Shown here piece by piece: positions 7,273 through 56,292 of a DNA stretch of 64,000 nucleotides. Both the position numbers and the translations under genes were made by a program. How positions within the stretch are numbered: the first letter of the stretch is position 1; the number at the start of each line of letters is the position of its first letter. Under the pieces are notes generated by a model. It saw only the letters and a program-made list of their open reading frames with translations. It made no database searches and was not told the DNA's origin. The stretch is from a virus (lineage: Duplodnaviria; Caudoviricetes): the IMG/VR virus record IMGVR_UViG_3300032335_000777, positions 32,001-96,000 of that record, one strand, 5' to 3'.

Positions 7273-10200
7273 TTAACAGGTTTTTCTATACAATACAGCT
7301 TTATCAAGAATCTGTTCTTTGATTTTAGCATCTCCAACTGTTTCTTTTCCAAGATTAGTTTTTCCACTACCTAAGATTCTACCATCTAAAAGTACGAAAT
7401 ATTCGTTATTGTTATAAGTAGAAACTCTCAAAGTCCCATCTTGCAGCTCTTTTCTAATACTCACTTTGTTTTTAGTAGTTTGATCTGTCACCTCTTTACC
7501 ATTATCATAGAACATTTTTCCATCAGGTTGAATAGTGATGCTGAACTGATTCACTTTAATGATTCTTGACTTTTGTTCAACAGGAGCTGGTGTAGCAGCA
7601 ACTTCTTGACCATCTGGATAATAGAAATTTAAAGGATTGTCTGCATTGATTCCAAGATACTCAGAAGCTCTAGATATACCTACATAGAGGAGTGAGTGTT
7701 TCTCTGTGCTCACTTCTTTACCATTCATCATCAATTTTGATGAAGAACCTCTTGGTAAACTGGAAGCATCAAAAAACACATTCTTTACTGTAGACCCTTG
7801 AGATTTGTGAATTGTCACAGCATGTCCAAAGTCAATACCTTTTTCAATGAGCAAATCTTTATCAATATTTTTATGTTGTTCGTTAACATATTTTTCCATC
7901 ACTCCTGATGCAGGATTATAAATGTATGTATCTCCTAAATCAACTATTCGTAATTGCATAGAGATTCCATCTTTTACATCATAATACCTAGCCCAGTCTT
8001 TACCAGATTTAGTTCTAAGTGCAATTTGTTTTGCTTCATGCAACCTGCTCATCATTTTTGAAAGCATTTCATTATTCTTTTGGAAATCTTCTTCTGTAAG
8101 ATTTTCAAAATCAAATGAATCATTTCTAGAAAGTTGTGCATAATTCGTACTTGCAATTTCTTCAACATCGCTAAGTCCTGCATCTTGTAAAGATTTTAAC
8201 TTTTTAGAAGAAGCAACAATTGAATACAACGATCCATCTTTTCGAACATCTCGAATTGTATATCGAATACTGTTTGCTATGTTTTGTTTTTCAATTTGTT
8301 TACTTGAGTAGCCTAGATAGCCAACAACAATATCTCCTTTTTGAAGATCTCCATATCTACCCAAAGACTCTCTGATTTTAAGGTTGTAATCTTGAACTCC
8401 TTTATTAGTGTAGGATATTAGAACAGTCTCTTCAGGATTCTTTTCGAAAACTTCAGCAAGCTTTGAATTGAATTTTGATATAGGTAAGTATTCAAGTTGA
8501 TCAGTAGATGGTACTATTGGTATTTGATCATTAACATTATTTCTAACATTAGTTAACATATTCAATATTGCATCACTACTAGTTCTCTTAACCTCTGTCA
8601 ATACAACTTGGCCAGTATCTGTAAAAGCTTTTGATACAAGTTTCTTCTCTGGGTTTCTTACATCCACCTCTGGGATCTGCATTACATCACCCATGAATAT
8701 AACTTTGATATTATTTTTAGGAGCCACTTGTACTAAAGCTTCATAATCTTTAGAATTTAGCATTGACACCTCATCCAATACAATTATGTTGTTACTTAAC
8801 CCAAGTCTTCTAGCCAACTTTGCATTAATTACTGGCGTTGATTCTCCTGTTGTAGGATCATATTTAGTTGATATAGCAGAAGCTACAGTCATTGGAAGTT
8901 GTTTATTTCCAGTTTTAACTGTAGCAAAAGCTAGCTCAGCAGTTGCTGCATGGGTTGGTGCAAGGAAATTAAATTTATAATTCCTTAAATACTTTTGTAA
9001 GTATCCAATTATAGATGTCTTACCTGTACCTGCTGCACCTTGCAAAGTGATAAATTCAGAACCTGGATCTGTAGAAAAATCAATAAGTCTTTCTAATGCC
9101 TGTCTTTGACCTTCTGTAAGTTGGAAGTCAGTATCTATAGTGGTTCCCTTGTAGGTGAATTTAGGAGTTGTAGGAACATTTTTAATAGATTCATTGAACT
9201 CTGAAAGAACTCTATTCCAAACCTTATCATTAGGATCTTGAATACCAGGAGTGTTTGACTTTCCTTCATCAAAAGCTTTTGATCTATCTGCACCAATTAA
9301 ATAAGCAGTGTGATAATCTTTTGCATTTACAATAGAATCATATTTTTCAGGAGCATATTCTTTTGCTTTTTCTGCAAAATAATACCAAAGTAAATTTTTA
9401 AATCCTTTATAAGGTTTTGACAATTGCTCTTTTGTAATTCCTTTATTTTCAACAACATCAACTTCTTCTTCCACTACAGGTTCAATACCAGTAGATACTA
9501 ACTTTTCAAAGTTTTCATTAAATACAATGTTAGATGGAATAGGACCAGCATTAGCAAACATTGCTGCCATTTCTTGTCCTGAATAACCATTCAAATTAGT
9601 TTCAGAATAATCAGAAACTAAGAACTCTTTATCAGGATTATTTTTAGCATAGTCATACAATGTTTTGATTTCTGTAGTTATTTCTTCAGGAGTGCTAGAT
9701 CTTTCTACATCGTAAAACTTCTTAGTTACAATAGCATAAGACTGACCTTGAAGACCTCTAGACTGACCTTGTATAGCACCAAATTTATCTTTAGCTAATT
9801 TTGCAGCACCTGCACCATGTGTAGGAGCTTGTCCTTGAGAACCACCTTCATTTGATCCAAATACAAATATTTGATTAGGTTTCAAACTTGTAATCTTTCC
9901 AGAGTATGTTTCAGTACCAGTGGATGGTTCAATAATAGTTGGTTGCTCAATAACTGTTGGAGCAACAACTTTCTCTCCAGCAAACATTGCAATGATAGCG
10001 TTGTCTGTCAACTCTTTCTCCACTTTGAAAGTGTTGTTGTCAAACACAGAAGGTGTCATTAACTTTTTATACTCAGTTACAATTCTTGAGCTTCCATATA
10101 AGTTAACCATCTTGAACACACTAAACTCGTCAAGTGACTTACCTGATTTTCTTTGAATGGTTAATGGAACACCATCTTCACTTTTCACTTTCTTGTAGCC

Positions 10201-13200
10201 AACCATTTCATTTTTGGAAAGAATTCCATCATTTGAAAGTTTGGTGAAGTCTTTCACTAACATAGTTTTTCCACTTGTGATGTCAACCACAATTGTTTTT
10301 GGTCCACTAGCAGTCATAGAACTTACGTATTGATATCTTCTCATCTTCACAAAATCTTTATTAGCTTGATTCATGAATGAGTATTTGTTATTGAGAGATA
10401 TCAACTTTCCACTTCCTGGAGTTATTCCATTTGTGATGGATGAAAGGAATGTGTCTGTCTTACCATAATCAATTTGTAATCCAAGCCCTGAATCTACAGT
10501 TCTGTATCTAGGACTAATCTCAGGGACAATGGTACTGTCAGAGAAATTGTTTCTGTAGAATAATCCTTCCTTGTTGAATGCCTCAAGTTCTGAAGATGGT
10601 TGTAAGACATTTATTACAGGAGCAATGATTGCAGCTCTGTCTTCAACAGGAACAATTGGTGCAATTGATAAATTGGTATCCATTGTTCCTTGTAGAATAG
10701 AAAGTTTTACCAAGTCATTGTAGAACTCTGGCTCTAGTTCTTTCAATTCTCTCATCATTCCTATATGCATATCTACATCAACAGCATCTGTAGGTTTCAC
10801 CTTTAAGGAAACTGTTACAGGACCATTCTCTTGTAGTGAACTTACAGGAACTAGATTGGATAAAAGGTTTGATGTAGGATATTTCTTCTTAAGCTTAAGT
10901 AGTCTAGAAGCTACACTATTTTCTCCTGTGAATAAGTTTTTACTATCATCAGGGAATATGGATGTAGATCTTGTTTGAATTAAGAAATCTAAGAATGAAG
11001 ACTTAAGCTTCTTAGCCACATAATTGAAATCATCTTCTGACATGTATTCATTATCATAGAATGGCTCCATGACATCATCAATGTATTGATCAATGCCTTG
11101 TGAATCAAGTTTCATTATAGCACCAAGAGATTTCAATTCTTCTCGAAGTAGTCTAACTTGTTCACCAATGAATGTGTCATTCATAACTTTTTCAATAGAA
11201 GAGACAATGTTAGTTTCTATGGCAGATGTTGTTCTTGTCATCTTTCTTTTGAAACCTTCATAGTTTGTCACTCTAGTGGTGTCATAGTTATATGCTTGAG
11301 TGAATTTGAAATTCAATTGAGCAAGCTTAGCAAGCTTTAGGAACTCATTGAATATAGCAACCTGCTTAGCATTAAACTCAGCAGAAGCCTTAGTGCCTTC
11401 TGGTCTGTTTGCATTCTCTCTAATTAAGTTTAACAGATTCTGCTTTGATTTCTCAAAATCGATCTTTCCATCAACGTCTTTTTCAAACTCATTAGACAAG
11501 TCATAAGATTCATCTTCACTACTTGGGAATTTAGAATAAGTGTATTCAAGATTATCCTTACCAAATAACGATCTACTCTTAATCTTATCAATATTTTTTA
11601 AGTGCTCTATAATGATTGGTTGGTTCAAGAAGTATGCTGTAAGTTCACCAGCACCAATTCTTTCCATCAACATTGCAGTTCCAACAACTAAGTCACTTTG
11701 AATAAGCTTCAAGATGTATGGATCTTTAGCAACGTCCACAAATGATGTAGCATATCCAGATAGTCTATCAGAGATGAATTCATCTTTTCCATCAGCAGTT
11801 TTTAGACCACCTAGAGAGATCATCTCTTTACCATCAACAGTTGTAGTGTTGTGAGGAATTGCTAAGCTGAGATCGCCTAAGAATCCTCTGTCATAATCAG
11901 AAAGTTTGTCTAGTAATCTAGAATCAAAATACAATCCAACCTTCTGACCAATTGCGTGACCAGTGATGTTTACAGCTGCAATACCCACCCACTTCTTACC
12001 CATCAAGAATGCTTGTCTCAAAGAAGTCATGAAGCTTCTAGAAACTAGTTTATTCTTAACGTCAGCTTCTTTGTTGTTTGTGGCATCATCAAGAATGTCA
12101 GCCACCTTTGATAATCCTGCATCACTTACTGGTGACATCAATCTTTCAAAGTTTCCAGGAAGTGTAACTAGGTCTTGTAAGATTTCATAATATCTGTTCT
12201 CTAAAGACTTCTTGTACATTTTCTGTACATACGCATTCTTTAGATTGCTATCAAACTTTTCTTTAGATAGATCTTCAAACTTGGTGGCAAGTCTACCCAT
12301 TTGATCACCAACATAATCAGCAGGAGTCATTCCTTTAGAAAGAGCTTGCTCTTCCATCTCATTAATTATTTCTCTGTGATTGATGTAGAAATTATAAAGA
12401 TCTTCACCAAGTAGAGTCTCAAGTGATTCAGCAGTTACGTTAGATGGATCTTCGATGGTTTCAGCAGCTTCAAATATCTCAAGCACCTTATCTCTAAATT
12501 CATCATATCTAGAAATACTATCTAGTTGCTTTTGAATACGATCTTCGTACACCTTAGTATAGAATTCCATTGTAGCTTCTTTGCTACCTTTGTATTCAAC
12601 AGCTTTGATATTTCCATTCACGTCAACATACACTGATTTAAGGTACATGTTGAGTTTATCAATATCAAAGTCAGATCCTGCTTTGGCTACAATCTCAGAA
12701 GGTACAACAACTGTAGATCCCATAGATGAATCAAGGAATCCTGCAATCTTGAACACCTCTGTAGAAGATGTTGCCTGGTGAGGAATACGAGCTCCTACAC
12801 CAAACAAAATCTTTTGATTCTCTGGCTTATTCAAATATTCAAAAATAGCCTTATCATCAGGGAACTTAGTCTTATCAGTGAAATACTTTTTCCAGAAGTT
12901 TGGAATCATTACTTCCATGTATCTCTTTCCATCCTCATTCTCATAGAACTTAAGAGCATCACTAGAAAGTACAACACTACTCTTATCTTGTTCAGATAGA
13001 GCATCATATTGCTTTCTAGTAATTTCTACATATCCATCTTTTGTTTTTCTTAATATCTTTCTTCCCTCTTTTGCATTCTCCCAAAGTGTAGCTGGAACCT
13101 GAACGTGAGGTTTACCATTCATCTGTGGAGAGATGAGAGACTTATTAATCATTGATATAAGAACACTTCTAATCTGTTCGTATGCAGAAGATGCTTCAAA

Positions 13201-16200
13201 TGGCATATTGAACTCACCATTCTCATTAAGACGTATTGTGTCAATTACATTTTGTGACACTTGTCTTCTCAACAACTCATACTCAAGTTCTCTAGATATT
13301 TTTACGTTGTCTACAACTACGTAATTACCATTCAGATCTTCTAGACCAAGTTTGTTCAAAAACTCTTCGTAAGCATTCTGATGCATCTCCTTGAAGATTT
13401 TAATCTTCTCTTCAGCAAGAGCTGTTGCACCTTCCATACCTTCAACTTCCTTACCATTCTCGAACATATCCATTGTGTCGTTCTTGGTAAGTTGAGATAC
13501 TCTAGTTTGAAGTTTACCTTCTTCGTAAGAGTTTTCCACTTGGATACCATAAGTTTTCCAAGCTACGTTCTCAATAGTTTCTTCTCCAAACTTTGCATTG
13601 TTGTAATCACCGTTTCCATTGTACAAGTTATGCCCTTGACGAGCACCTTCTTTTCTTGAAGACTTGTAAGAAACATATCCCACCTTCTCATTCAACATCT
13701 GTACATACAAGTTCTCAAGGTTTGTACCCTCTACCATCTTGTATGTAATAGGCATTTGAGAGAACTTGTCAAGGATGCCTTCTATTCTATTTAGTCCAGC
13801 TTTAGAACCAGATACAATAGGCTTCAGCACCTCTGTAACAAATGGAGGTTGTGGTTTAGTAATTAGTTTTTGATCATGCTTTTTAAGTGCCTCACTCTTG
13901 TATTCATACAATCCTTTAGCAGACATCTTCTGTCTAGCATAAGCTTGATTCCATTGGAACCAAGGTTCAGCAAGATCATTTGACCATTCACCATTCTTAA
14001 GCTTCACTTCTCTATAAGCACCATCAATGATCACTGAGAAACCATCAGCTTCATCATATCCTCCAAACTTCTTAATAAACTTAGAGAATGGGTTTACATC
14101 ATTTAGTGTAGCAGTTTTAACGTATGACTTAAATGTATAACGAAACTTATCATCTGCTTCTAGAGATAGGTCTTCTGTTACATCATTGAATCTATTATTT
14201 AGAAACTTATTGAATTCTGGATGATCAATAGTTACTCTTCTAGGAGATAGCCAAGACTTGATACGCTTGGTTTCATCTAGTTTACCATTTTTAATTTTGA
14301 ATTGATAAGGATCGCCAAATATAAATTTGTGCATTTCAATGTTTGCAATCATGTAGTTCATGTTTACAAACGAAAGCACCTGCATCATCTCGTCTTCAGA
14401 TAATGAATTTCTATTCAATTCATTAGTTTGAGCAAACTTGCTATCTAAAGTTTCATATCTATAACCCTCTGAATTTTTTGTCACTTCACCAGAATTAATC
14501 AAATCTTTCAGTGTTGATTGATTTAGACTAGTGATTGTATTTCTAATAGAATTTTCTAGAGCTTCATCACTAACAAGAGCTAGAATGTCCTTTCTAGATT
14601 TACCTTCTTTAATAGCTTTATGTATCTCTTCAACAAGTGGTGCATCAAGAATATCTTTGAAGAATCTAAGTTCTTTAGCGTTATCTTTTGCAGAAGCAAG
14701 TTTTGATCTTGTTTCCCAATCAAGGGCCAAATCAACCTCATCTTCTAAGTATCCCTTGAAGATGCTCTTGATTTTTGTAAATGCTCTTTCAGCATCGTTG
14801 TTGAATAGTTCATACTCAACCATTGATCCTAGATTCAGCATTCTTTCTGTAGAAGAGTCTGCTGGTACTAAGATGTAATAGTTACCATTTATGTTTTGAT
14901 TGATTTCAACAGTGAATCTGTCACCCTTTGTCAAAGATGATATGGATAGTCCTCTATCAGTAGTCTCATCTTTCAATCCATCAATTACACCAATCTGTAA
15001 AACTTTACCTTCAATCTTATTACCATTATCATCATAGAACATTCCACCCTTCTTAATCAACAAGCTGTTCTTTGAGAATGCATCTTTTAGCTCTGGTCTT
15101 GCTTCAAATAGTTCATCAAGAGTCATTGCCTCATTGAACTCTGCTTCGAATACAGAAGGAGCGTTACTATCTGTGAAGTTACTTATACGCTTATTCTCTA
15201 TGTTAAATCTAGTTGTATCCTGGTCAGGATTAACTAGTCTAACATACATATCTGCAAGAGTTCTCACATGAGAGTCCACTCCTGAGAACTTGTCTCCAGA
15301 TAATGAAGCATATCCATTTGGACCCATTTCATATATCTTGGTTACAGCATTATCAAACCTCTTATTAAGTTTCTCATCATTATTTATCTTTTCAATAAAG
15401 CTTAATGGGAACTCAATGCCTATATTCTTCAGATAGTTTTGTACAGCCTGTGGCTTAAGAAGACCTTCTTTAGTTGGATATTCTTTTTGGTCTTTATTAA
15501 TTGCGTAAAGTGTTATTCCTTTGTCACCTTTCTTTTTGAAAATAAATGATGTTTCTGATTTAGAAAGTTGTTTTATATTTTGGAACCACTCGTTTCTAGT
15601 TTTATTCAAAGCAGATGTTCTATCACCAGGAGCAGTGAATGATTCAACACCACCATCTCCCTCTCTTTGAATTGCTATTTCAACAAATGGATTACTCTTA
15701 GACATTGATTGAATAAACTGAATATAGAATCTCCAGTCAGCTTCTTCAAACTTGCTATAATCAAGAATTCCATTCTTAGCATCGCCACCAAGTCTATTGA
15801 AGATTCTGTAATAGTTACCATCTTCTTTTACCAGATCAATAATTTTTTGATCAACTTTTGCCAAGCTTGTATTAGAAAGCTTGTTCAATAGGGTTGCGAA
15901 CGTCTTATTAAAATTGTTTAGAAGACTCAATCCCTTCACTGACTTAGATCTTAGCAGCTTAGGAGCAGTACCTTCTGGATAAACAGTTTCAGCTGCTGGG
16001 TTAGAAGCCAATACAAACTTCACAGAGAACCTCATGTTCTTTTTGAAGTCTATTTCAAAGGCTTCAGCAGCATAGAGTCTATCAGTTTGGCTAGCATCAT
16101 TTGTACTAACCACACCTTCAGTGTCAATATTTATACCCATTGTTCTAATTAGATCTTTTGATCTCAAGAACAAATCTTTGAAAGCCTCTTCTCCAAGAAG

Positions 16201-19200
16201 TTCTATGTTGTCAGTATATTCACTTCTCAAGAAATTGTACACTTCTTTTCCAGTGACAGATCTTGGATTGAATAGTTTTTCCAATCCATCAGTGTTGTTT
16301 CTATTGAAGATGTATTCAGACATTGTAATAGTCATGTCCTGAACAATTGCCCAAGCCTCATCTTCAGATAATACACTACCATCTGCTATACTTATCTTTC
16401 TGTATTCAGGAGCTGCTGATTTAGCTTCTTCTGAAACAACATAATCTTTGAACTTACCTGTATCAATAGACTTGAACAAATCATCTTTGAGAGATGGCTT
16501 TGCAACAAAGCTTTTGAAGAAGTCAACAATAGCCTTGAAGAAGTTTCTTATCTTCTCAGACAATGTTCTAGCTGGCAGCTTACCAAGTCTATAGTCAGCA
16601 AAGTCATCAGCAATACGTTCTTTAGCTTGTCTATCTGTAGCATTACTGTATGCAACAAGTTGACCACTTTCTCTATCAAGGAAACTACCACGCTTAGATT
16701 TAAACTCATCTAGAATAGCTTGTCTCTCGCCTTCTGTCAAGAATGCTTTCCATACACCTTCAAAGACTTCGTGATATTCTGTACCACTCAAACCACGTCT
16801 GAAGAACTTAGCAACTCCGCCTTCAAATACACCCCATGCCTTAGAACCATCATGTAGTGTGATGATGTTCTCAAGGATTTCAAATGGTATGTTAGGAACA
16901 TTCTTTGCATGCCAAGCTTTGAATGCTTCAATGTCTCTATCACTTATTCTTCCACCACGTTCACCAGTACGAACTTTTCTAGTTTCCTCATCTTTAACAC
17001 CAGACTTAAATCCTGATAGTCCTTTCTTTTCTTTAGGTGCTTCTTTTTCAACAGGTGCAGGAGCTTCAGTAGGTGCAGATTCTTCAATAGTTGGTTCAGT
17101 AGTTTCAGAAACAGGAGCCTCTGGAGCAACAGGAGCTGGAGCTGGTGCTTCATTAATTGCAGCTTCCACTTTACTTGCTGCTTCACCAATGTAGAACACT
17201 GTTGCTGCATCAAAATCATTTAGTCCTTCTGTTGCTGTAGGATATTTCTTTCTAGCAACTTCAATCTTTTTAGGATTGTCAGCAAACTTCTGTATTGTCT
17301 CTGCATTAGTTTCTGGAGAGATTGCATCAATTTCAATTTCACCACTTGGTAGAATGTTAGCTTTGAAACTAAACTCACCACCAAACATGGTTACAGTGTT
17401 TACAGTGCCATCGTTAAGAGTGTATGGTCCCACTGTAACAGGAACGTCAGATTCAATTATATCTGATGGTCTTACTGGAGCACCTGAGCTAGAAGGGCTT
17501 GGGGGATCTTGTTCTTTCTCACTTGGTACATATCCTTCATCACCTGTCTCAAAGTTAATCAGCGTAGCATACTTACCTGCAAATGCGTAAGGTTGTGCTT
17601 CTGTAGGATTTGCAATTGTTACAAATGGAATCTCATCTGTAGTTCTGTCTTTACCAGAGGCAAGATAGGATTGATAGTTTGGCCATTCTCTTTCTTGTAA
17701 CTTACCATCTTCAAGGAAGTATTCAAAGAATGGACTTTCTAGTCTCAATGTTTTAGCATTGGCAGAATGATACATCTCAGAAAGCTGAGCAACAATCTCT
17801 TGTTCTTTAGAAGCGATTTCTGAGAACTTATATGATTGTGATCCAAGCTTAAGAGTGAGGTTTTCTGTGTCAAACCAAAACTGATTATCTTTTGCGTTTT
17901 CTGTAATCTTCTTATAGTTGAGAACATTCTTCAAGAACAATAATTTGTTCTTGTCAAACTGAGGAGCTTTACCTTCGCTAGCATCCTTCTCAAGCTTTGT
18001 TATAATAGACTTAATAAGTTCGTATGCTGTAGCAGCTTTCTTCTTACCAAGCTTATTATTGTTTAGATATTGTAATAGGTCACCATTTTGAATGTAGACA
18101 AGTCCTTTTTTAGAATTTACAATCTTACCATTGTATGAAATAGTATCAGTGGTAACAACATTTATAAGTCCTGGAATAGTAGCTATTGCAGTTTCATCAA
18201 CTAAAGAACTAGTTACAGGATTCTTTTTATATACACCACCCTCTTTTTTTGTATTAGCAAAACCTGCTGAAACTCTAAATTCAAGAGTTGGAGGAACTGT
18301 AGAAGGCTTCATAAGTTCTACACGTCTGTTTCTCCAAATCTTTGCAAACTTTACAAAGTCATCCTTCTCATTCGTTCTATATCTATCATTTCCTCTACTA
18401 TCTGTAATAGATGTGCTAGGCATTGTTTGGAATATAACCTTTCCAAGATCAGTAGGTTGACCCACTTCACCAATGCGCTTACCATCCTGATCTACAAAGT
18501 ATCTCTTCTTACCATCAATCTCAACAAATACCATTGCTACGAATCCATTGTCTTCATTCATGACTCTGGATTCAAAAGCAGCTTTATCAGCATCCACTTG
18601 CTCTTGTGTCATTTTGTATGACAAAGCTGTAATGCCAGATAGGCCAAGAGATTCTTCTTGGCTGTATGTAAATACAATTGCTCTAAGCTTATTTCTATTC
18701 TTAAATTTTCTGATTTTATTTAAGAAAATTCTTGATCTTGTTACATGAGGCTCTGACTTAGAAGTGTCAGCAAATTCCTCAGACTCTGTAATACTAGAAT
18801 CAAAGAAATCTATAGCACTTTTCATTCTACCAGTTTCGCCTGTATCAACTCTTTCTCCAACATCTTCTGGGAGAGTGCCTACAGGGAATGGTTCGTTGTC
18901 AGAAATATCTTCTTGTTGTTTATCAAGAGAGCTACTAGATTCTTTAATCTTATCAGCTATTTCTTTTGCCTTAGCTTGTTTTTCAAGCAGTTCTTTAGTA
19001 AGTCTTTTAAATCTATTTATAACAGCTGCACTGATCTTTTTATCACCAAGAGAGTTAATGTATTCAAGTTTGTTTACGCCTTCTCCTGGCTTCTCATATA
19101 TGTCTCTGAAGGCAGGATATTGAAGTACATCATCAATAGATTGATTCAATGCATCTTCAAGTTCCTGAGAAGTGTTATCCTCTTCAGTGATGTTGTATTT

Positions 19201-21750
19201 ATTAAATTGTTCAGGAGAGAAGAACGTAGCAGTACCATCAGGTAGTTGCACTTCAAACTCTCCACCAAGTGTACTGGATAATACAGTGAACTTTGGTGCA
19301 AGAACGATCTTTCCTTTTTCTAAAGTGATGGGTTCAGCAAGAGAATAGGTTTTGCCCAATTCTAAAGTTTTCTGAACTTTCTTTCTACCTTCTTTTTGAG
19401 AAACTTCTACATCTTGGATTTCTTCCTCTGGACGTTCGTAGTTTAATGGATCATTCTTAATACTATCGTATTCTCCAATAAACATCTTTCTTCTTAGAGA
19501 TAGCTCAATAACATCGTCTAGAGTGCCTTTGAGTTCATCCTTAACATCAGATGTCACACTCATTGAGTTAATTGTTTCTAGAGCTTCTTTGGTAGCTTCA
19601 GCGTTTGGTTTACCTGTCTCAATAATGTCTTGGAGAATTGCTTGTGTATTAATACCAGCAGTGGTCAACTTAACATTCAGTTCAGGAATCCTTACATCAT
19701 AGTTTGCAATTTTAGTACTTGCATAAGCAAGCATGTCAATTGCAAAAGGAGAATACTTTCTTTTTTGTTCACCATCAACTTCTATAGTCTCACCAGCATA
19801 TCTAATGTTCAAAGCCTGATACATATCACTGAGAGCCTTTGCAGAGTTCTCAATGCTAGTGATTCTTTTCTGGAAGGTTTCAACAGTATCGTTGATGTTT
19901 GCCATTCCTTGTTCCTTAAGTTCAGTGAGACCTTGTTCAGTCAATCCACCTTTCTTAAGTTCATCCAGATCTTCCATCACCATATCAAATCTTCCGTATT
20001 TGATACGTGGTGCTAGATAGTTATACATCTGGTCACTGTACAAGTCACGCTCTTCTAATCTATCACCATTGATGATTGCGTCTCTATGTTGTTGTTGTAA
20101 TACAACGCCTCTGTTAGCAGCAGCAAGTCTATCTTCAAATGCTTCTTTGAACGATGGTGCATTATTCATCATGTTCAAAAAGATCTCTGTATTCTTTGCC
20201 AGAGCTTTTCTTTCTCGATAGGTACCTCTTGCTTGCATCAAGCCACCAGTGATTCCTCCAAGAATACCACTCTCAATACCTTCTTTAGATACAAGAGCAC
20301 CTACGCCTTCTCCAAATTTATCTTTACCAAACAATCCATACAAGAAGCCATCTACAAATAGATCAGCTTCTCCACCTTCTTGAGCCTTCTTAAAATAGTT
20401 TTGTGTACCTACTTGCAATCCATATTGTAAAATCTCTTGAGCTGATTCTTTTGGATCAAACACATAAACCCCACTTCTTTTTACACCTTGATAAAGTTTA
20501 CCAAATCTAGTTTTTGGTCCAGCTTTGGCTACATACTTTCCTGTCTCATCAATTACAAAATCATCAACTCTTCCTAGCAAACTGTTTGCAGCTTGTCTAC
20601 TTGCTGAATAGCTTGATCCCATCAAGTATGGAAGTTGTGAATATTCTGTAATAGACAACAATGCCATGTTGCCAAAGAAAGCAGTTTTACCAACTCTCTC
20701 AGCTTCAACATTTATATTTTTTAAGTCTTCACCAATTGGAGCAAATCCATTTTTTTTAGTGTACTCTTCAATTAAATTTTCTCTAAATTCTTTAGATGTA
20801 TGCAAAGCTTCGAACGATGCTTCACCAGCAGATGAATTAATTGCTACAGCAGTTCTTCTGAAATTATCACCAAACTTTGCAAACTGTGTAGTTTGTTTAG
20901 CCAGGTTAGCCAAAGCAGAAGATCTTGCAGACAAATCTGCTATAGATGAAATCTGACTTTCTAATATAGATGCAGCCTCTACATTTTTAGCAGCTGAGAA
21001 TGCTCTTGATGTGTTTCTTAGAAGTGGTGTAAAAAGTTTAAATCCTTGTGAAGCTTCAGCAATAGTTGCAGCTCTAGCAGCTGCGCTACCTATTGTTGAA
21101 CCAAGTCTTAAAAGTCCAGCATTTGCAATGTTACCAGTAACCATTGCCCCCACTGCAAATCCAGCATTCTTGATTAACTTATCAAAAAGAAAGTTGGTTG
21201 TAAACCAGTTATCTGTAGAATACCACTCAGAATTTTTCTCAGCAGCTGTATAATAGTTTGGAAGAAACTCATTATCAACTTTAGTATTCCACTTATCCAA
21301 TCCACGCATTACTTCATTGTCAAATACATCAGACATTTTCTGTGTAAATAACAATGACTTACCAACACCATATAGCATACCAAATCCACCAGCTACTGTA
21401 GTGGCTGCAAGGTTTGCTCCTTTCAATACACCATTGGCAGCTTGCTTATACCAAGCTTGCCCTTGTGCAGCAAAGTCTTCGTAGTCTCCAATTGTAGGAT
21501 TGAAAGTTTTGTATCTCTTATTTGCTTCAAGTTCTGCATTGCTAACAAACAATCCCTTTTGAGAAAACTTTTGTCCAGCAGCTGCTAGTTCAGCAAATAC
21601 ATCTTCCTTCTGAGAAAGATCTGAAACTCCACCACCTTGTCCAGAACTAAAGTTCATTGGAGGATCCTTTGGTGCAACTAGTGGAATATTAGAAGATTTG
21701 TAACCTGTTTCTTTAATGATGGGTTGTAAGTTTCTATCAAAATCAGCCAT
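7273..21750 (-). CDS. Virion-packaged RNA polymerase polyprotein (4825 aa), crAss-like, with C-terminal macro-like and SF1B helicase domains
   Basis: GARIPHQ (about 12775-12795) and KAGSDFDIDKL (DxDxD at 12655-12672) are double-psi-barrel RNAP motifs. HEVFE zincin-like motif at 16759-16773. Helicase motifs GAAGTGKT, DEVSM, GDVMQ, HKSQGST and YVGISRA. Confidence 0.9.
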   Translation of the reverse strand: MADFDRNLQPIIKETGYKSSNIPLVAPKDPPMNFSSGQGGGVSDLSQKEDVFAELAAAGQKFSQKGLFVSNAELEANKRYKTFNPTIGDYEDFAAQGQAWYKQAANGVLKGANLAATTVAGGFGMLYGVGKSLLFTQKMSDVFDNEVMRGLDKWNTKVDNEFLPNYYTAAEKNSEWYSTDNWFTTNFLFDKLIKNAGFAVGAMVTGNIANAGLLRLGSTIGSAAARAATIAEASQGFKLFTPLLRNTSRAFSAAKNVEAASILESQISSIADLSARSSALANLAKQTTQFAKFGDNFRRTAVAINSSAGEASFEALHTSKEFRENLIEEYTKKNGFAPIGEDLKNINVEAERVGKTAFFGNMALLSITEYSQLPYLMGSSYSASRQAANSLLGRVDDFVIDETGKYVAKAGPKTRFGKLYQGVKRSGVYVFDPKESAQEILQYGLQVGTQNYFKKAQEGGEADLFVDGFLYGLFGKDKFGEGVGALVSKEGIESGILGGITGGLMQARGTYRERKALAKNTEIFLNMMNNAPSFKEAFEDRLAAANRGVVLQQQHRDAIINGDRLEERDLYSDQMYNYLAPRIKYGRFDMVMEDLDELKKGGLTEQGLTELKEQGMANINDTVETFQKRITSIENSAKALSDMYQALNIRYAGETIEVDGEQKRKYSPFAIDMLAYASTKIANYDVRIPELNVKLTTAGINTQAILQDIIETGKPNAEATKEALETINSMSVTSDVKDELKGTLDDVIELSLRRKMFIGEYDSIKNDPLNYERPEEEIQDVEVSQKEGRKKVQKTLELGKTYSLAEPITLEKGKIVLAPKFTVLSSTLGGEFEVQLPDGTATFFSPEQFNKYNITEEDNTSQELEDALNQSIDDVLQYPAFRDIYEKPGEGVNKLEYINSLGDKKISAAVINRFKRLTKELLEKQAKAKEIADKIKESSSSLDKQQEDISDNEPFPVGTLPEDVGERVDTGETGRMKSAIDFFDSSITESEEFADTSKSEPHVTRSRIFLNKIRKFKNRNKLRAIVFTYSQEESLGLSGITALSYKMTQEQVDADKAAFESRVMNEDNGFVAMVFVEIDGKKRYFVDQDGKRIGEVGQPTDLGKVIFQTMPSTSITDSRGNDRYRTNEKDDFVKFAKIWRNRRVELMKPSTVPPTLEFRVSAGFANTKKEGGVYKKNPVTSSLVDETAIATIPGLINVVTTDTISYNGKIVNSKKGLVYIQNGDLLQYLNNNKLGKKKAATAYELIKSIITKLEKDASEGKAPQFDKNKLLFLKNVLNYKKITENAKDNQFWFDTENLTLKLGSQSYKFSEIASKEQEIVAQLSEMYHSANAKTLRLESPFFEYFLEDGKLQEREWPNYQSYLASGKDRTTDEIPFVTIANPTEAQPYAFAGKYATLINFETGDEGYVPSEKEQDPPSPSSSGAPVRPSDIIESDVPVTVGPYTLNDGTVNTVTMFGGEFSFKANILPSGEIEIDAISPETNAETIQKFADNPKKIEVARKKYPTATEGLNDFDAATVFYIGEAASKVEAAINEAPAPAPVAPEAPVSETTEPTIEESAPTEAPAPVEKEAPKEKKGLSGFKSGVKDEETRKVRTGERGGRISDRDIEAFKAWHAKNVPNIPFEILENIITLHDGSKAWGVFEGGVAKFFRRGLSGTEYHEVFEGVWKAFLTEGERQAILDEFKSKRGSFLDRESGQLVAYSNATDRQAKERIADDFADYRLGKLPARTLSEKIRNFFKAIVDFFKSFVAKPSLKDDLFKSIDTGKFKDYVVSEEAKSAAPEYRKISIADGSVLSEDEAWAIVQDMTITMSEYIFNRNNTDGLEKLFNPRSVTGKEVYNFLRSEYTDNIELLGEEAFKDLFLRSKDLIRTMGINIDTEGVVSTNDASQTDRLYAAEAFEIDFKKNMRFSVKFVLASNPAAETVYPEGTAPKLLRSKSVKGLSLLNNFNKTFATLLNKLSNTSLAKVDQKIIDLVKEDGNYYRIFNRLGGDAKNGILDYSKFEEADWRFYIQFIQSMSKSNPFVEIAIQREGDGGVESFTAPGDRTSALNKTRNEWFQNIKQLSKSETSFIFKKKGDKGITLYAINKDQKEYPTKEGLLKPQAVQNYLKNIGIEFPLSFIEKINNDEKLNKRFDNAVTKIYEMGPNGYASLSGDKFSGVDSHVRTLADMYVRLVNPDQDTTRFNIENKRISNFTDSNAPSVFEAEFNEAMTLDELFEARPELKDAFSKNSLLIKKGGMFYDDNGNKIEGKVLQIGVIDGLKDETTDRGLSISSLTKGDRFTVEINQNINGNYYILVPADSSTERMLNLGSMVEYELFNNDAERAFTKIKSIFKGYLEDEVDLALDWETRSKLASAKDNAKELRFFKDILDAPLVEEIHKAIKEGKSRKDILALVSDEALENSIRNTITSLNQSTLKDLINSGEVTKNSEGYRYETLDSKFAQTNELNRNSLSEDEMMQVLSFVNMNYMIANIEMHKFIFGDPYQFKIKNGKLDETKRIKSWLSPRRVTIDHPEFNKFLNNRFNDVTEDLSLEADDKFRYTFKSYVKTATLNDVNPFSKFIKKFGGYDEADGFSVIIDGAYREVKLKNGEWSNDLAEPWFQWNQAYARQKMSAKGLYEYKSEALKKHDQKLITKPQPPFVTEVLKPIVSGSKAGLNRIEGILDKFSQMPITYKMVEGTNLENLYVQMLNEKVGYVSYKSSRKEGARQGHNLYNGNGDYNNAKFGEETIENVAWKTYGIQVENSYEEGKLQTRVSQLTKNDTMDMFENGKEVEGMEGATALAEEKIKIFKEMHQNAYEEFLNKLGLEDLNGNYVVVDNVKISRELEYELLRRQVSQNVIDTIRLNENGEFNMPFEASSAYEQIRSVLISMINKSLISPQMNGKPHVQVPATLWENAKEGRKILRKTKDGYVEITRKQYDALSEQDKSSVVLSSDALKFYENEDGKRYMEVMIPNFWKKYFTDKTKFPDDKAIFEYLNKPENQKILFGVGARIPHQATSSTEVFKIAGFLDSSMGSTVVVPSEIVAKAGSDFDIDKLNMYLKSVYVDVNGNIKAVEYKGSKEATMEFYTKVYEDRIQKQLDSISRYDEFRDKVLEIFEAAETIEDPSNVTAESLETLLGEDLYNFYINHREIINEMEEQALSKGMTPADYVGDQMGRLATKFEDLSKEKFDSNLKNAYVQKMYKKSLENRYYEILQDLVTLPGNFERLMSPVSDAGLSKVADILDDATNNKEADVKNKLVSRSFMTSLRQAFLMGKKWVGIAAVNITGHAIGQKVGLYFDSRLLDKLSDYDRGFLGDLSLAIPHNTTTVDGKEMISLGGLKTADGKDEFISDRLSGYATSFVDVAKDPYILKLIQSDLVVGTAMLMERIGAGELTAYFLNQPIIIEHLKNIDKIKSRSLFGKDNLEYTYSKFPSSEDESYDLSNEFEKDVDGKIDFEKSKQNLLNLIRENANRPEGTKASAEFNAKQVAIFNEFLKLAKLAQLNFKFTQAYNYDTTRVTNYEGFKRKMTRTTSAIETNIVSSIEKVMNDTFIGEQVRLLREELKSLGAIMKLDSQGIDQYIDDVMEPFYDNEYMSEDDFNYVAKKLKSSFLDFLIQTRSTSIFPDDSKNLFTGENSVASRLLKLKKKYPTSNLLSNLVPVSSLQENGPVTVSLKVKPTDAVDVDMHIGMMRELKELEPEFYNDLVKLSILQGTMDTNLSIAPIVPVEDRAAIIAPVINVLQPSSELEAFNKEGLFYRNNFSDSTIVPEISPRYRTVDSGLGLQIDYGKTDTFLSSITNGITPGSGKLISLNNKYSFMNQANKDFVKMRRYQYVSSMTASGPKTIVVDITSGKTMLVKDFTKLSNDGILSKNEMVGYKKVKSEDGVPLTIQRKSGKSLDEFSVFKMVNLYGSSRIVTEYKKLMTPSVFDNNTFKVEKELTDNAIIAMFAGEKVVAPTVIEQPTIIEPSTGTETYSGKITSLKPNQIFVFGSNEGGSQGQAPTHGAGAAKLAKDKFGAIQGQSRGLQGQSYAIVTKKFYDVERSSTPEEITTEIKTLYDYAKNNPDKEFLVSDYSETNLNGYSGQEMAAMFANAGPIPSNIVFNENFEKLVSTGIEPVVEEEVDVVENKGITKEQLSKPYKGFKNLLWYYFAEKAKEYAPEKYDSIVNAKDYHTAYLIGADRSKAFDEGKSNTPGIQDPNDKVWNRVLSEFNESIKNVPTTPKFTYKGTTIDTDFQLTEGQRQALERLIDFSTDPGSEFITLQGAAGTGKTSIIGYLQKYLRNYKFNFLAPTHAATAELAFATVKTGNKQLPMTVASAISTKYDPTTGESTPVINAKLARRLGLSNNIIVLDEVSMLNSKDYEALVQVAPKNNIKVIFMGDVMQIPEVDVRNPEKKLVSKAFTDTGQVVLTEVKRTSSDAILNMLTNVRNNVNDQIPIVPSTDQLEYLPISKFNSKLAEVFEKNPEETVLISYTNKGVQDYNLKIRESLGRYGDLQKGDIVVGYLGYSSKQIEKQNIANSIRYTIRDVRKDGSLYSIVASSKKLKSLQDAGLSDVEEIASTNYAQLSRNDSFDFENLTEEDFQKNNEMLSKMMSRLHEAKQIALRTKSGKDWARYYDVKDGISMQLRIVDLGDTYIYNPASGVMEKYVNEQHKNIDKDLLIEKGIDFGHAVTIHKSQGSTVKNVFFDASSLPRGSSSKLMMNGKEVSTEKHSLLYVGISRASEYLGINADNPLNFYYPDGQEVAATPAPVEQKSRIIKVNQFSITIQPDGKMFYDNGKEVTDQTTKNKVSIRKELQDGTLRVSTYNNNEYFVLLDGRILGSGKTNLGKETVGDAKIKEQILDKAVLYRKTC

Positions 21751-30743: not shown

Positions 30744-31610
30744 TTACTTGTAACTTATTTGTGCTGCTCCAATAATGAATTGTGAAACTAAATGAGCATC
30801 TGATTTATTATCAAGAATGTGTCTGATTTTCAATTCTTTAGCTCTGAGAGGTTCTTTCTTAAATGATCTTGATCCATAGTCCATGTTGATTTGATTCACT
30901 TCTTTATCAAGAGAAAGTGATTGACATGTTCTGACAAAGAGTGGTATGCTCTTGTCCTTCACTACAGACCAGAATGTATTGTACTGATAGAAGTTATCAC
31001 TCTTGGTAAATGTAATAGTCTTGCTTTCAGCATTTAATATAGGATATTGTAAGTAGGATTTCAAATTGTTTATTGGTTTTGGCACAAGCTCAAGCACACC
31101 TGTTGATTGTTGTCCATTGTAAAGAACAGCTTTATTAAACCATGCATTGTCAAGTTCTATTCTTGATACATCATTTGACACACCATAAGGATCACTAAAG
31201 TATTTGTACACCTTGGTATAGTCTTTTACATTCTGAAGAATCTCATCTTGGTATTGATATGCAAAAGGATATTCAATAATATATGGTTCTATGTTTCCGT
31301 AGAATATATTATATATTGTATGGTTATTAAGATGTCTCCATACACAAGCTGTCTGAATAGTTTCTAAAGGAGTATTTTGATATTGATTTTCTGTAATGGT
31401 AGTGACAGGGAATGATTTTTGGTACGCACACTTTCCTTCAGATGTAATTGTAATCAAATCAACACTATCATCTACAATGAAACTAATGCCTGTAGTCACT
31501 TGTGAAAGTGTTACACCAGAGGCAATAACATTCCCAAACGCATCTGTGATGGTGAAAGGCCCTGCGTTAGGGCCTGTCTTTGTTAGCTTTATAGTGATTG
31601 TCTTTGACAT
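30744..31610 (-). CDS. C-terminal part of tail muzzle/stabilization protein with an added small beta-rich N-terminal domain (288 aa)
   Basis: VWRH...YNIFYG...PYIIEYP...FNKAVLYNGQQSTG...PLRAK resembles the C-terminus of crAss-like muzzle proteins. Starts 13 nt after the stop of the 1782-aa gene. Confidence 0.55.
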   Translation of the reverse strand: MSKTITIKLTKTGPNAGPFTITDAFGNVIASGVTLSQVTTGISFIVDDSVDLITITSEGKCAYQKSFPVTTITENQYQNTPLETIQTACVWRHLNNHTIYNIFYGNIEPYIIEYPFAYQYQDEILQNVKDYTKVYKYFSDPYGVSNDVSRIELDNAWFNKAVLYNGQQSTGVLELVPKPINNLKSYLQYPILNAESKTITFTKSDNFYQYNTFWSVVKDKSIPLFVRTCQSLSLDKEVNQINMDYGSRSFKKEPLRAKELKIRHILDNKSDAHLVSQFIIGAAQISYK

Positions 31611-31623
31611 GTTATTTATTTAA

Positions 31624-34600
31624 TTACGAAGGTCCCTCAGTTGTAGTAGTTGTAGTAGTTGGTGGAGGGGAGCAATCACATTGTGGATCAAGACAACCAA
31701 CACCTTGAGATAAGAATCCACAATCATCACTTATAACTTCAGTGACACATGCAGTGAAGCATAGTCCTTGATCTTCAGAAGGTATGTTGTAAGTTATAGT
31801 TACACCATTTTCATTCTTGTATACAAATGTGCAACCACCAAATGGAGCTGATGTTAATATGTAACATTCAGATGGTATTTGAGTAGTTGATGTAGTTACT
31901 GTTGTACTTGTAGTTGTAGTGGTAATTGGATTTTGAGTGGTAGTTGTTGTAGTCGTGGTAGGTCCCTGAGTAGTTGTAGTTGTTGTAGTCGAAGGTGGAG
32001 TTGTGGTAGTTGTTGTGGTTGTAGTTCCACAAGTTCCAGCCAACACTTGAGTTATTTCATTTGTATAGTTTGTGTGTGTATTTGATTGCAAATAATACAA
32101 AGTACTCAAATTACCATTTATATAATAGAAGCCATTTGCATAATTTGTAAATGACCAGAATGGTTGAGGATTGGTGGTATTACAATTTACATCTACATCG
32201 TATATCAAGAATGTATATTGAAGAGTAGTAGTTGTAGTTGTAGTTGTGGTAGGAATGCCTGTAGTGGTAGTTGTACTAGTTGAGCTAGTTGTTGTAGTTG
32301 TAGTTGGTGGTATAGCTGTAGTTGTTGTAGTGGTTGTAGAACTTGTCGTACTAGTAGTTGACGTAGTGCTAGTGGTTGACGTAGATGTTGTACTAGTGGT
32401 CGTACTAGTAGTTGATGTGGACGTGGAGGTTGTAGAAGTTGTAGAAGTTGATGTCGTACTTGTTGATGTTGTAGTGGTAGTAGTTGGATTAGGAACCAAT
32501 GTTCCCACTAAGAAATCAAACTCTTCACAGCAATTATTTTGTCCAGAATAGAAGAAGTTATTCTCTGCAATATAGAAGTTTGGAAGATAGCTGTGGAAGC
32601 TTATCCAACTCTTTGTATTCATGTTGAAAGACAATGTCCATGATACATTGCAGAAGTATTCTTCATCACTAAGACTAACATCTTGTCTTATGGTTAGACC
32701 ATTAACAACATTATTGATGTAGAAACTTTGTTCCACTGGATCATATAGAATGTTATTTGACTTTGGTGCATAATCAAGTTTTGTAATAATCACTCTATCA
32801 TACACAGCATCATACACACCATGTAGTCCTATTCCCTTGAAGTGATTGTCAATTTTCACATCTGGGAAGTTATTATCAATCATGAATGGTAGATGCTCAA
32901 CAAAGAATCTGTTCATTCCTGATCCAAACCCAGACAAGTCAGTCACTTGTGTTCCCTGAATCAAGAACACTTGTCCTCTCTTTGCATCTATTGTAATTTG
33001 ACCTTGAGGAATCTTTAGAAGCATCTTGTGTTGACTTCCTACATATCCAAGATCAGTTTCAGCAAAGTCAATTGGAGGAGCACCTCTAAATAATAATGGA
33101 TTACCTACATAAGCAGCTTGAGGGTTGCTTGTGTCGATAGTCAATAGATTATTGTATAATAATGACTTATTGTCAAATCTGGCTAGAATAGCTTTGTTTT
33201 GTATACCATCTAAGCTTACAAGATTTCCATAGTTCTGTGGGAAATCAAAGTAAGAAATAGCTCTATAGATAAGCCAGTTGTTTATTCTATTGTCAGCATC
33301 AATGTTCTGGGCATCAGAATAGATTGTTCTGAATGGATAGTTTGTAAAACAAAGTCTTGCTTCCCAATCAGGAGGCAAATGAGTGAACGTATTCTCTTTG
33401 TTTTGCTTAGAGAATGTGGTGTTATAGAAGTAGGTGTTGTCTTGTGCAATAGGCACAAAACTTTCCTGAACCCAATCATCTGGAATGTCTGTACTAACAT
33501 GTGGCCAGAATTCTCCTTCTCTATTGTTGAATGCTTGTCTTAAATCAAGGTTGTAAGAACTCTCGCAATAGAAGTTTGGAATACCATAGGCAAACAGATA
33601 GAAGTAACCATCATAATATGTAATGGTTGAGCTTGGTGTCACTGCTCCAGATCCACCTGGAGGGAATGTTGTACTACTAGTAGTGGTGGTGGATGTAGAT
33701 ATAATCACATCTGTTCCCACTTCATTAGGACAGTCAAAGTTATGTGCTTTGTAAGAAATGATGTTTGCCATCACTCCTTGTCCAGGAATGCTGTAGTTCT
33801 CGAGAATTGATCTTGCAGAGTGCCAGTATCTAGGATAGGCAACATTACCTATCTCATCATAGAAGATGTCACTATCATCTGGAGCATTCACTCTATTGTC
33901 AATAAAGAATGGAAGCTTTGTTTTGAATGCGAACCTGCTAATAAATGTATCACCACCAAACACTGTAGTGGTTGGATTAGGTGAGTTAATTATGTATTGA
34001 TAACCTGTATCAATTGTTTCGTATGAATAGATTTGTCCCCACTGATTGATGATTATATCTTTCAGTGATGCATAATATGAAACAACCTGTATAGGTTCTT
34101 CTTTAGCTGGTGTTGAGCAGTTTCCTATTTCTGAAATAGTGAATCTTGATCTGTCTGAAACAATACTTGTTATTCCAGAAAGCATGTTTGGACTCTGGTT
34201 AGGATAGGGAAGAGCTGTAGTGTCTATGTTTGTTTTTACAAAAACAGAGCTTTCTCTGTTCCAGTTGTTGATTGGAAGATCATCACCAAGAGCTTGTACA
34301 CCTGGGATTAAGTATCTAGATATATCAAGTTCTCTTTGTTTGATTCCTTGATTATCAGGAACACCTACACCATAGTTATAATCAGCAATAGAATTAAATG
34401 AGTATGCGTAGTTTCTTCTAGTGATACCATTAACGTAGATGGTCAAATAAGACTGATATGCAGTGAACATGGCTGTCGCACTGAATGGTGTAGTGATACC
34501 TCCAAGTCTAGCAGAACTATCAAGAGCAGCCTTCTGTGCAGCTTCAGTGAGCAGTTTGTATTTGGCATTATCCCTCACCTCTACAAAGTGAGCTTTACCT

Positions 34601-55509: not shown

Positions 55510-55692
55510 ATGGAAAAGTCATTAGATGAATTGGTATATGCACTCTCTTTTGAGTGTAAAGAAGCTGTCTATTCTAACATAGAACATAAAGAGTTTATTA
55601 GACAGATGGCAAAGAAGCTTGAGGAATTAGCTAGACAAATTAGTATTGAACATTATATTGCTATGCAAGAATCTTCTTACAATGGACAATAA
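55510..55692 (+). CDS. Small hypothetical early protein (60 aa)
   Basis: ATG start, followed by a terminator. Confidence 0.55.
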   Translation: MEKSLDELVYALSFECKEAVYSNIEHKEFIRQMAKKLEELARQISIEHYIAMQESSYNGQ

Positions 55693-55718
55693 GAGCCTGT
55701 AATAGGGCTCTTTTGTTT
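55691..55718 (+). terminator. Intrinsic terminator
   Basis: AAGAGCCT-GTAATA-GGGCTCTT followed by TTGTTT. Confidence 0.65.
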
Positions 55719-55873
55719 AAATGCGTCATAACCTGTTTCCCAAGGACAGGCAGTTGTAGTTGGTTATGTCCTTACTAGTTAGGATATAATCTGTAGACCT
55801 ACTGTCACATAGATGACAGCATGTATAACATCGCCAAAGATGTGGGGCTACAACTGAACGCAGAGGGATATAT
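55713..55873 (+). ncRNA. Twister-like self-cleaving ribozyme candidate with a large multibranch P5 insertion
   Basis: AA-TGCG(T); CCTGT-TTCCCAAGG-ACAGG; 10-bp stem CAGTTGTAGT/GCTACAACTG; (A)CGCA-GA-GGGA. Loop TCCC can pair with GGGA. P1 is weak. Confidence 0.5.
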
Positions 55874-55901
55874 CATTGAAATATTAAACACACAAATAAA
55901 C

Positions 55902-56138
55902 ATGGACAATATTCATTACGATAATCAAAGGATATATTGTGAGAACAATAAGGTTCCTTTCTTCGCTTCTTCATCTTGTGACCATATGTATGGTTGGGTT
56001 AATGATGAAAGATATGGCAACACCCAGACATTAACAGAAATGTTAATTGAAAGATATGGGGATGAACAAGCATTTATTATAGCATCTTCTTCACATATTA
56101 CATCTTGTCCTGGATGTTGCAGAAGTTGGTGTGATTAA
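55902..56138 (+). CDS. Hypothetical early protein with C-terminal Cys cluster (probable start at ATG 55902)
   Basis: A/C-rich leader. YCENNKVPFFASSSC...HITSCPGCCRSWCD. Confidence 0.65.
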   Translation: MDNIHYDNQRIYCENNKVPFFASSSCDHMYGWVNDERYGNTQTLTEMLIERYGDEQAFIIASSSHITSCPGCCRSWCD

Positions 56139-56143
56139 GATTT

Positions 56144-56258
56144 ATTGTATGTGGCCACGTAGTGCCTTAATCCATCCGTGATGCATGTGTAAACATGTAG
56201 GATGGACATACAATTTCATTTGGAGGGTCAGATGCTCCCAAGCAGGTGCAAGGCCTGC
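56144..56258 (+). ncRNA. Structured intergenic RNA element (three-way junction plus T-loop-like hairpin)
   Basis: ATTGTATGT/ACATACAAT; CCATCC/GGATGG; TGCATGT-GTAA-ACATGTA (GNRA loop); GCAGG-TGCAAGG-CCTGC. Confidence 0.45.
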
Positions 56259-56292
56259 ATTTATTTATTCATTCATTTAAACGCACAACATT

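Follow-up and report, generated by a model that had tools for sequence, protein, structure and literature searches.

A putative twister-class self-cleaving ribozyme with a large P5 domain in a phage genome, and the uncatalogued RNA family to which it belongs

In a 64,000-nucleotide stretch of phage DNA (positions 32,001 to 96,000 of the 110-kb IMG/VR virus record IMGVR_UViG_3300032335_000777, referred to here as the window), an initial annotation had pointed out a segment at 55713-55873 in which the elements of a twister ribozyme follow one another in the expected order, with an insert in P5. This locus raises the question of whether the segment encodes a self-cleaving RNA and, if so, what such an RNA would do in the genome that carries it. 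Its predicted large terminase, its portal and its major head protein, as well as three ORFs of 4825, 1835 and 1782 aa, put the phage itself near the crAss-like phages. The top matches of the terminase are to a Leptolyngbya phage (40%), the Cellulophaga phages phi17:2 and phi4:1 (32%), and gut crAss-like phages. The 4825-aa ORF is a single reading frame on the minus strand (7273-21750) within the structural arm of the phage and has the ORFs of 1835 and 1782 aa on its sides.

All of the elements that had been listed were found where they had been placed, within a 150-base RNA at 55719-55868 on the plus strand (Table 1), and the same architecture recurs in at least 95 copies described below. Folded alone, this RNA reaches -52.6 kcal/mol (z = -4.04, i.e. 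about -4.0), and none of 200 shuffled sequences was as stable. The nested part of the fold is both the minimum free energy and the centroid structure, so that there is one dominant structure on the plus strand; it contains P4 (55732-55750) and a P5 stem enclosing three hairpins, both as proposed. The P2 helix assigned to TGCG at 55722-55725 is present as well, but it is five base pairs long (55722-55726) instead of four. The last base of its 5' strand, U55726, has an alternative partner in G55745 as a component of T2, since UC at 55726-55727 is able to pair with GG at 55744-55745.

Table 1. The putative ribozyme, its structural elements and its immediate neighbors, in window coordinates.
Feature	Position	Strand	Details
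Terminator-like hairpin and U tract	55691-55718 (hairpin 55691-55712)	+	8-bp stem, 6-nt loop; from terminator scan
Predicted cleavage site A^AA	55719-55721	+	predicted scissile bond A55719 (-1) / A55720 (+1, candidate general acid); then A55721
P2, 5' strand UGCGU	55722-55726	+	pairs with ACGCA 55858-55862; 5 bp
Junction CAUAA	55727-55731	+	C55727 invariant, can pair with G55744 (T2); A55728 invariant
P4, 5' strand CCUGU	55732-55736	+	pairs with 55746-55750
L4 loop UUCCCAAGG	55737-55745	+	9 nt; UCCC 55738-55741 is the 5' strand of T1; AA conserved; GG 55744-55745 is the candidate T2 partner
P4, 3' strand ACAGG	55746-55750	+	pairs with 55732-55736
P5 domain, four-way junction	55751-55856	+	base stem 55751-55761 with 55846-55856, 11 bp; cloverleaf-like
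Three P5 hairpins	55762-55791, 55802-55819, 55828-55843	+	enclosed by the P5 base stem
Junction A55857 and P2 3' strand ACGCA (55858-55862)	55857-55862	+	single-base junction
G55863 and A55864	55863-55864	+	G55863 candidate general base; A55864 expected to pair non-canonically with the first L4 A
T1, 3' strand GGGA	55865-55868	+	pairs with UCCC 55738-55741
78-aa ORF	55902-56138	+	start 33 nt past the RNA; no family match

Relatives of this RNA were collected from viral contigs by two pattern scans, one anchored on L4 and the 3' tail and the other on the P5 base stem only. Together these scans yielded at least 95 distinct full copies in uncultured phage contigs (individual loci are cited by L numbers). 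Three relatives located via the upstream 60-aa ORF already made compensatory P2 and P4 changes visible, and a covariance model search returned further copies, often two to four within 1-2 kb of the same genome. Clusters of three to four copies within 1-2 kb, which recall tRNA gene arrays, are found at L209:743-2384 (minus strand), L215, L172, L210 and L040. We also scanned bacterial and archaeal genomes: among the first 120 pattern matches listed, four passed the P4 and P2'/tail checks (L238, L253, L261 and L303, all on MAG contigs) and one passed the tail check only, while the remaining 115 passed neither check and are probably due to chance. An Rfam scan of the window at the gathering score matched no family, blastn of GenBank phages with the region and with a consensus-like copy gave zero matches, and neither a second copy of the family nor a hatchet ribozyme was found in the genome of the window's phage. 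We found no published description of the family in the literature, no family for it in Rfam and no copy in GenBank phage records. It is an uncatalogued RNA family, with a twister core but without P1 and with a large extra folded domain.

The conservation of the fold was assessed in two alignments. Alignment A2 holds 55 copies selected through L4 and the tail; alignment A5 holds 58 copies, namely cmsearch matches of at least 80 bits and three named copies, and its loci come mostly from the P5-anchored scan. Because the search model (R1) was built from A2, A5 retains some dependence on the L4 and tail sequences. Paired cells make up 98.1% in A2, where 182 cells carry changes on both sides, and 98.7% in A5, where 126 do; for each alignment none of 500 shuffles equalled the observed value, and sliding the partners out of register left only 24-52% (A2) and 28.5-49.9% (A5) of the cells paired. 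In both alignments, P2 is 99% paired with both sides changed in three of five pairs, P4 is 99.7-100% paired with both sides changed in all five pairs, and the base stem of P5 covaries and includes G-U pairs. The G-U pairs, along with the shared orientation of family copies and flanking genes, identify the plus strand as the RNA strand. The copies lie in intergenic positions.

The pairing of GGGA with the loop TCCC, which the initial annotation had put forward as a pseudoknot, is borne out by the family: the T1 helix is 95% paired in A5 and shows double-sided change in two of its pairs (C-G to A-U in 4 and 1 sequences). Compensation is seen in four distinct copies that combine a CAC loop with a GUG tail (L080:8636, L179, L188 and L206), and again in L123 and L124, which combine CCA with UGG; L124 belongs to the copies with an insert at L4. 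A few copies have an uncompensated T1, and these appear degenerate. P2, P4 and the pseudoknot, i.e. the pairings in which covariation had been named as decisive, were thus all found to covary. The situation at T2 is less simple. The C:G pair of the candidate T2 is invariant (58 of 58 copies in A5), whereas its first base instead covaries perfectly with the base 5' of P2'. At this fifth P2 pair, 75 copies have C-G, 18 have U-A and one has U-G. Because of this covariation P2 may comprise five base pairs with T2 reduced to C-G alone, or the RNA may switch between the two pairings. Taken together, the alignments show a conserved plus-strand RNA fold with P2, P4, the T1 pseudoknot and the P5 stem, in which the core bases of twister all occur in order.

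The positions that matter for catalysis in twister are all conserved in the family. The AA after the predicted cleavage site is invariant in A2 and A5, and little or no variation is seen across the family at A+1, A+2, the adenines of L4, the C that follows P2 and the G-A that precedes GGG; the GA before the T1 strand is kept in every family member that retains the cleavage strand. Among the 95 copies listed, the -1 base is U in 89 (94%), C in five and A in one, the last being the window copy only. In a large assay of natural twisters, any base was tolerated at -1 (A 0.72 cleaved, compared with 0.76), while changes of A1 and A2 were not (bioRxiv 10.1101/2024.07.11.603121). The same study reports that G-U wobbles are tolerated in the 2-bp pseudoknot, and it numbers the L4 positions 1-9 (bioRxiv 10.1101/2024.07.11.603121). 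Since the published assay tolerates each of them, the -1 A, the U-G pair in the candidate T2 and the 9-nt loop of the window copy are no obstacles to cleavage, and the 9-nt L4, which had been counted as a deviation from twister, need no longer be regarded as one. The weak P1 that had been suspected is absent as a conserved helix throughout the family: a duplex of the flanks has -1.52 kcal/mol, as compared with -1.46 kcal/mol for mismatched flanks (p = 0.25). Published work finds the P1 of twister to be dispensable (PMC5408937; bioRxiv 10.1101/2024.07.11.603121). The 20 nt upstream of the family copies are U-rich near the site only and hold no conserved promoter-like motif.

None of the Rfam twister models (RF03160, RF03154 and RF02684) gave a gathering-score match in the window or a match at E<=10 over 55600-56000, and RF03160 found nothing in the whole genome. 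A cmsearch with the twister-P1 model, with and without the P5 insert, had been suggested as a check and likewise returned no match, even on compact copies: the twister models did not match the compact L040 copy at E<=10, and compact copies of 58-65 nt were missed. The failure of these models is probably due to the fact that their consensus includes P1 and P3, which the family lacks.

We consider self-cleavage between A55719 and A55720 to be the best explanation of the locus, on account of the invariant catalytic positions, the covariation of T1 and the tolerance data, and we judge it fairly probable that the RNA at 55719-55868 belongs to a large family of phage ribozymes of the self-cleaving twister class, so far uncatalogued. 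The original observation is confirmed, and its twister-like interpretation is partly supported. In the proposed mechanism, the L4 loop would dock on the 3' GGGA through T1 and on the YC after P2 through T2, which would bring G55863 and A55720 to the A55719-A55720 bond. Internal transesterification at this bond would leave a 2',3'-cyclic phosphate on the upstream product and a 5'-OH on the downstream product. P1 would not be required, and the U-rich 5' flank may supply base triples, as in the env22 structure.

As far as the sequence context indicates, the putative ribozyme probably severs the transcript a short way upstream of a small gene. The locus had been described as lying right after a terminator and before an early gene; the terminator-like hairpin and the 78-aa ORF are both there, while "early" reflects position only. 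The U tract of the hairpin stops one base short of the proposed cleavage site, and it could be that this hairpin doubles as a P0-like hairpin. The same hairpin also abuts the RNA in L002, L004, L021, L060 and L090, though in only eight of the 95 copies listed overall. Cleavage would detach transcripts that have read through the upstream terminator from the message further downstream, and it would leave the compact ribozyme with its P5 four-way junction as a structured 5'-OH leader ahead of the small ORF. The alternative suggestion that the cut releases the inserted structured RNA does not hold, because after cleavage at the 5' site P5 stays embedded between P4 and P2'. In L079, the GGGA of one copy is directly followed by the UAA of the next. 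In phages with such head-to-tail copies the next ribozyme would also set the 3' end, and cleavage in L079 would excise a unit-length RNA.

Further structured elements lie downstream of the 78-aa ORF. A second element of about 70 nt (56147-56215, plus strand) consists of a closing 8-bp stem and two inner hairpins (z = -3.4) and has no Rfam match; its relatives immediately precede twister-type copies in L003, L079, L069 and L087, and the P5 interior of L067:6154-6353 is made up of two copies of an element of this type. It is followed by a small plus-strand hairpin (56216-56270) formed by a GGAGGG segment and a CUCCCAAGC segment; with its canonical L4-like sequence this hairpin imitates the T1 pairing in nested form, and a terminator follows at 56242-56258. 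The first half of the motif was also found after a family copy in L069 and in L220.

The family includes rearranged members, which were taken into account when we weighed the alternatives to cleavage. These fall into three kinds that have the base of P5 and the tail in common. About 20 copies, e.g. L152, carry a 100-170-nt insert between the 5' strand of P4 and L4, and P2, P4 and T1 covary across this insert. The insert is itself conserved and is composed of a short closing stem and then an 8-bp hairpin abutting the loop (L079:9863-10160, minus strand; L152:1600-1901, plus strand; L168:455-790, minus strand; and about 20 other loci). Copies that seem to begin at L4 were considered as half-ribozymes or recombination remnants, and this was rejected because their 5' strands lie 105-200 nt upstream; the cleavage strand and the 5' strands of P2 and P4 at that distance covary with the 3' strands, and therefore these copies carry the insert next to L4. 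About ten other copies have the CCC strand moved 5' of P2, so that the 3' tail lies fully in a continuous helix of 9-10 bp, and have no cleavage-site AA. These plain-helix relatives occur at L128:11799-11948 and 12516-12658, L163:6004-6166, L149:534-693, L178, L185 and L195, and they appear to be rearranged versions of the same RNA without catalytic activity. The candidate general-base G is changed to A in five plain-helix relatives, and this change is confined to them.

These relatives bear on the possibility that the RNA as a whole is structured but non-catalytic. Its core, a stacked P2-T1 helix with the P4 hairpin, would then be a scaffold presenting a functional P5, e.g. a protein-binding or base-pairing small RNA, and its ends would be produced by a promoter, a terminator or host RNases. 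The plain-helix relatives are what one would expect from such a scaffold, as they keep P4, the P5 base and the 3' tail with a continuous 9-10-bp helix for a core and without N^AA. The tail is perfectly complemented in L128 (two copies), L149 and L163, and the general-base G is A in L178, L185 and L195; L013:1973 and L213 are the converse, belonging to a few copies in which the tail was altered to match the 5' strand. Since the relatives with a complementary helix for the cleavage strand or for the tail keep P4 and P5, cleavage is not indispensable to the function of the RNA. The P5 domain points partly in the same direction. It is always present, with a 10-bp base that is conserved in sequence, which a passive optional stem would not need, and one P5 interior occurs on two cores, given that the P5 of the window copy shares a nearly identical interior with L043, whose P2/P4 core is different. 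On the other hand, the interior is hypervariable, ranging from a tetraloop (4 nt) to about 200 nt and shrinking to a 3-bp hairpin in L253 (a compact copy with a hairpin P5, as is L040:4756-4855), and the interiors of the family have no motif in common. The essentially invariant A+1, A+2, -1 U (94%), G-A before GGG and L4 AA wherever the cleavage strand is kept also argue against a scaffold, because catalysis requires these positions and a scaffold alone does not. We accordingly regard a purely non-catalytic RNA as unlikely, though it deserves to be taken seriously. We also looked for an antisense target of the P5 domain within its own phage genome and obtained short matches only, with nothing convincing. 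Most of these matches fall near 31600-32310, where many short repeats of an 11-nt word, one that is also found where the P5 stem begins, probably represent a repetitive coding stretch inside the 1782-aa ORF.

The cloverleaf-like four-way junction of the window's P5 also invites comparison with tRNA. The RNA could be a tRNA-like precursor in which the P5 base is the acceptor stem, RNase P and RNase Z carry out the release, and the twister-like flanks are merely a paired leader and trailer. Support for such a precursor comes from L117, whose P5 is an Rfam tRNA match (47.4 bits against a cut-off of 29) with the conserved P5 stem as acceptor stem; ARAGORN calls a tRNA-Arg(ACG) there, whose anticodon loop carries an insert of 12 nt (L117:12576-12663, plus strand). 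In addition, a hairpin resembling a T arm lies 11-12 nt from the P5 end in L098 and L119. However, L117 is the only one of 56 family members called a tRNA, even with introns allowed, T-arm-like motifs occur in four of the 95 copies listed where six are expected in shuffles, and CCA is absent after the stem. In the window, ARAGORN found no tRNA, and the Rfam tRNA model (RF00005) had no match at E<=10 over 55600-56000. The window's P5 was therefore rejected as a tRNA on the strength of the ARAGORN and Rfam results and the lack of enrichment in T-arm motifs, and we think a tRNA-like precursor very improbable as an account of this RNA.

An equally slim chance is given to a cis-regulatory leader of the 78-aa ORF, i.e. 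an attenuator or a ligand-sensing switch that involves no cleavage. Its position in the 5' UTR, 33 nt ahead of the start codon and directly after a terminator-like hairpin, would suit such a leader, and many copies are 14-49 nt ahead of an ORF (23 of 90 family members are followed at this distance by the start of an ORF on the same strand). Yet many other copies are in arrays or far from ORF starts, there is no conserved alternative pairing with the start region, and the downstream ORFs share no family (among 34 scanned, no family matched more than twice). Nor was a conserved neighboring protein found next to family copies. Finally, a DNA-level element (an inverted-repeat mobile element or a recombination site) or a chance resemblance is hardly credible: a variable segment is enclosed by the P5 base as a near-perfect inverted repeat of 11 bp and the multi-copy family has cores and interiors that appear reshuffled, but G-U pairs are frequent and on the plus strand only, the orientation always follows the flanking genes, and DNA repeats do not explain compensatory changes that keep RNA pairing, including that of the pseudoknot.

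If self-cleavage is accepted as the preferred explanation, a broader function for the family can be envisaged, which we offer as speculation and hold to be doubtful. The twister core would be a reusable chassis for hypervariable P5 "cargo" RNAs, and phages with arrays of units would excise small RNAs exactly by self-cleavage. Each cut would give the RNA of its unit a 5'-OH end and leave the RNA before it with a 2',3'-cyclic-phosphate end, and the excised RNAs could then be ligated into circles. Biological specificity would be carried by the variable P5 domains, which are occasionally tRNA-like, and the permuted non-cleaving relatives and the L4-insert variant would belong to one RNA superfamily in which catalysis has been gained and lost.

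Should the family cleave, it would constitute a large natural class of twisters without P1 and P3 that the standard catalogue and published descriptors have overlooked, and the census of twisters, and that of ribozymes in crAss-like and other environmental phages, would be substantially incomplete. It would also illustrate what the twister fold naturally tolerates, namely a rewired T2, P5 inserts of at least 100 nt and, among the relatives, another large insert beside L4. The series from active-looking cores to plain-helix relatives would allow gene-proximal, tandem and non-catalytic forms to be compared, and the long-open question of what twisters are for in bacteria and phages would become directly testable.

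Two classes of phage ribozymes can be compared with this family. Hatchet ribozymes (RF02678) are largely confined to Crassvirales phages according to a 2026 preprint (bioRxiv 10.64898/2026.03.07.710320). They share with the twister-type family the genomes of crAss-like phages, an intergenic location and the strand: in two of 12 loci scanned, a hatchet lies upstream on the same strand, 1-1.5 kb from family copies (L098:8591-8727, 82 bits, and L006:5635-5767, 78 bits, both on the plus strand). The hatchet fold, however, is unrelated. The HDV-like theta ribozymes sit 3' of phage tRNAs and process their ends (PMC10879173); like the putative ribozymes of the family, they are small self-cleaving RNAs carried by phages, and they are physically linked to tRNA or tRNA-like RNAs. 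They differ from the present family in that they are a different ribozyme class and in that the tRNA-like domain of L117 is inside the putative ribozyme, where the cut would not free it.

The closest known system is the type-P1 twister (RF03160, clan CL00120; Roth et al. 2014, reviewed in PMC5408937). We took the defining features of twister from PMC5408937, from bioRxiv 10.1101/2024.07.11.603121 and from the Rfam twister-P1 consensus as displayed on a real twister located in a Ruminococcus genome. The order of that consensus is P1, UAA, P2, GC, the P3 hairpin, P4 with the loop UCCCAAGC, UAAA, P2', GAGGG and P1', and the published descriptor consists of a P4/L4 consensus, "NC", "GRG", "NA" and a general base G (bioRxiv 10.1101/2024.07.11.603121), to which the core sequence of the family conforms. 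The phage family has in common with type-P1 twister the order N^AA, P2, pseudoknot strand, P4, L4, P4', optional P5 site, P2' and G-A-GGG, and the insert seen in the window occupies the position of twister's optional P5. Its L4 sequence UUCCCAAGG agrees with the consensus loop UCCCAAGC in seven of eight bases, the last base being G and not C. The catalytic A and G are conserved, with the family GA-GGG equivalent to the GAGGG of the Rfam consensus, and T1 covaries in both, including the CAC/GUG variant that is also found in the Ruminococcus twister. The differences are concentrated in a few elements. Type-P1 twister has a 4-bp P1 and a P3 hairpin of 6 bp, both of which the phage family lacks; its T2 is GC:GC, whereas the candidate T2 of the family is YC:GG and overlaps the fifth P2 pair; and the A-rich UAAA strand before P2' in the Rfam consensus corresponds to A or AA in the family (in the window A55857 alone, or with A55858 if P2 is read as 4 bp). 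P5 is optional in twister but obligatory in the phage family, with its sequence-conserved 10-bp base and an interior of 4-200 nt. With respect to P1, the family resembles the engineered mini-twister, which stays active without P1 and cleaves off a single nucleotide (PMC5408937): the phage family naturally has nothing paired upstream of the -1 base. The mini-twister was engineered from env22 and retains P3 and a canonical T2, whereas the phage family is natural and phage-borne.
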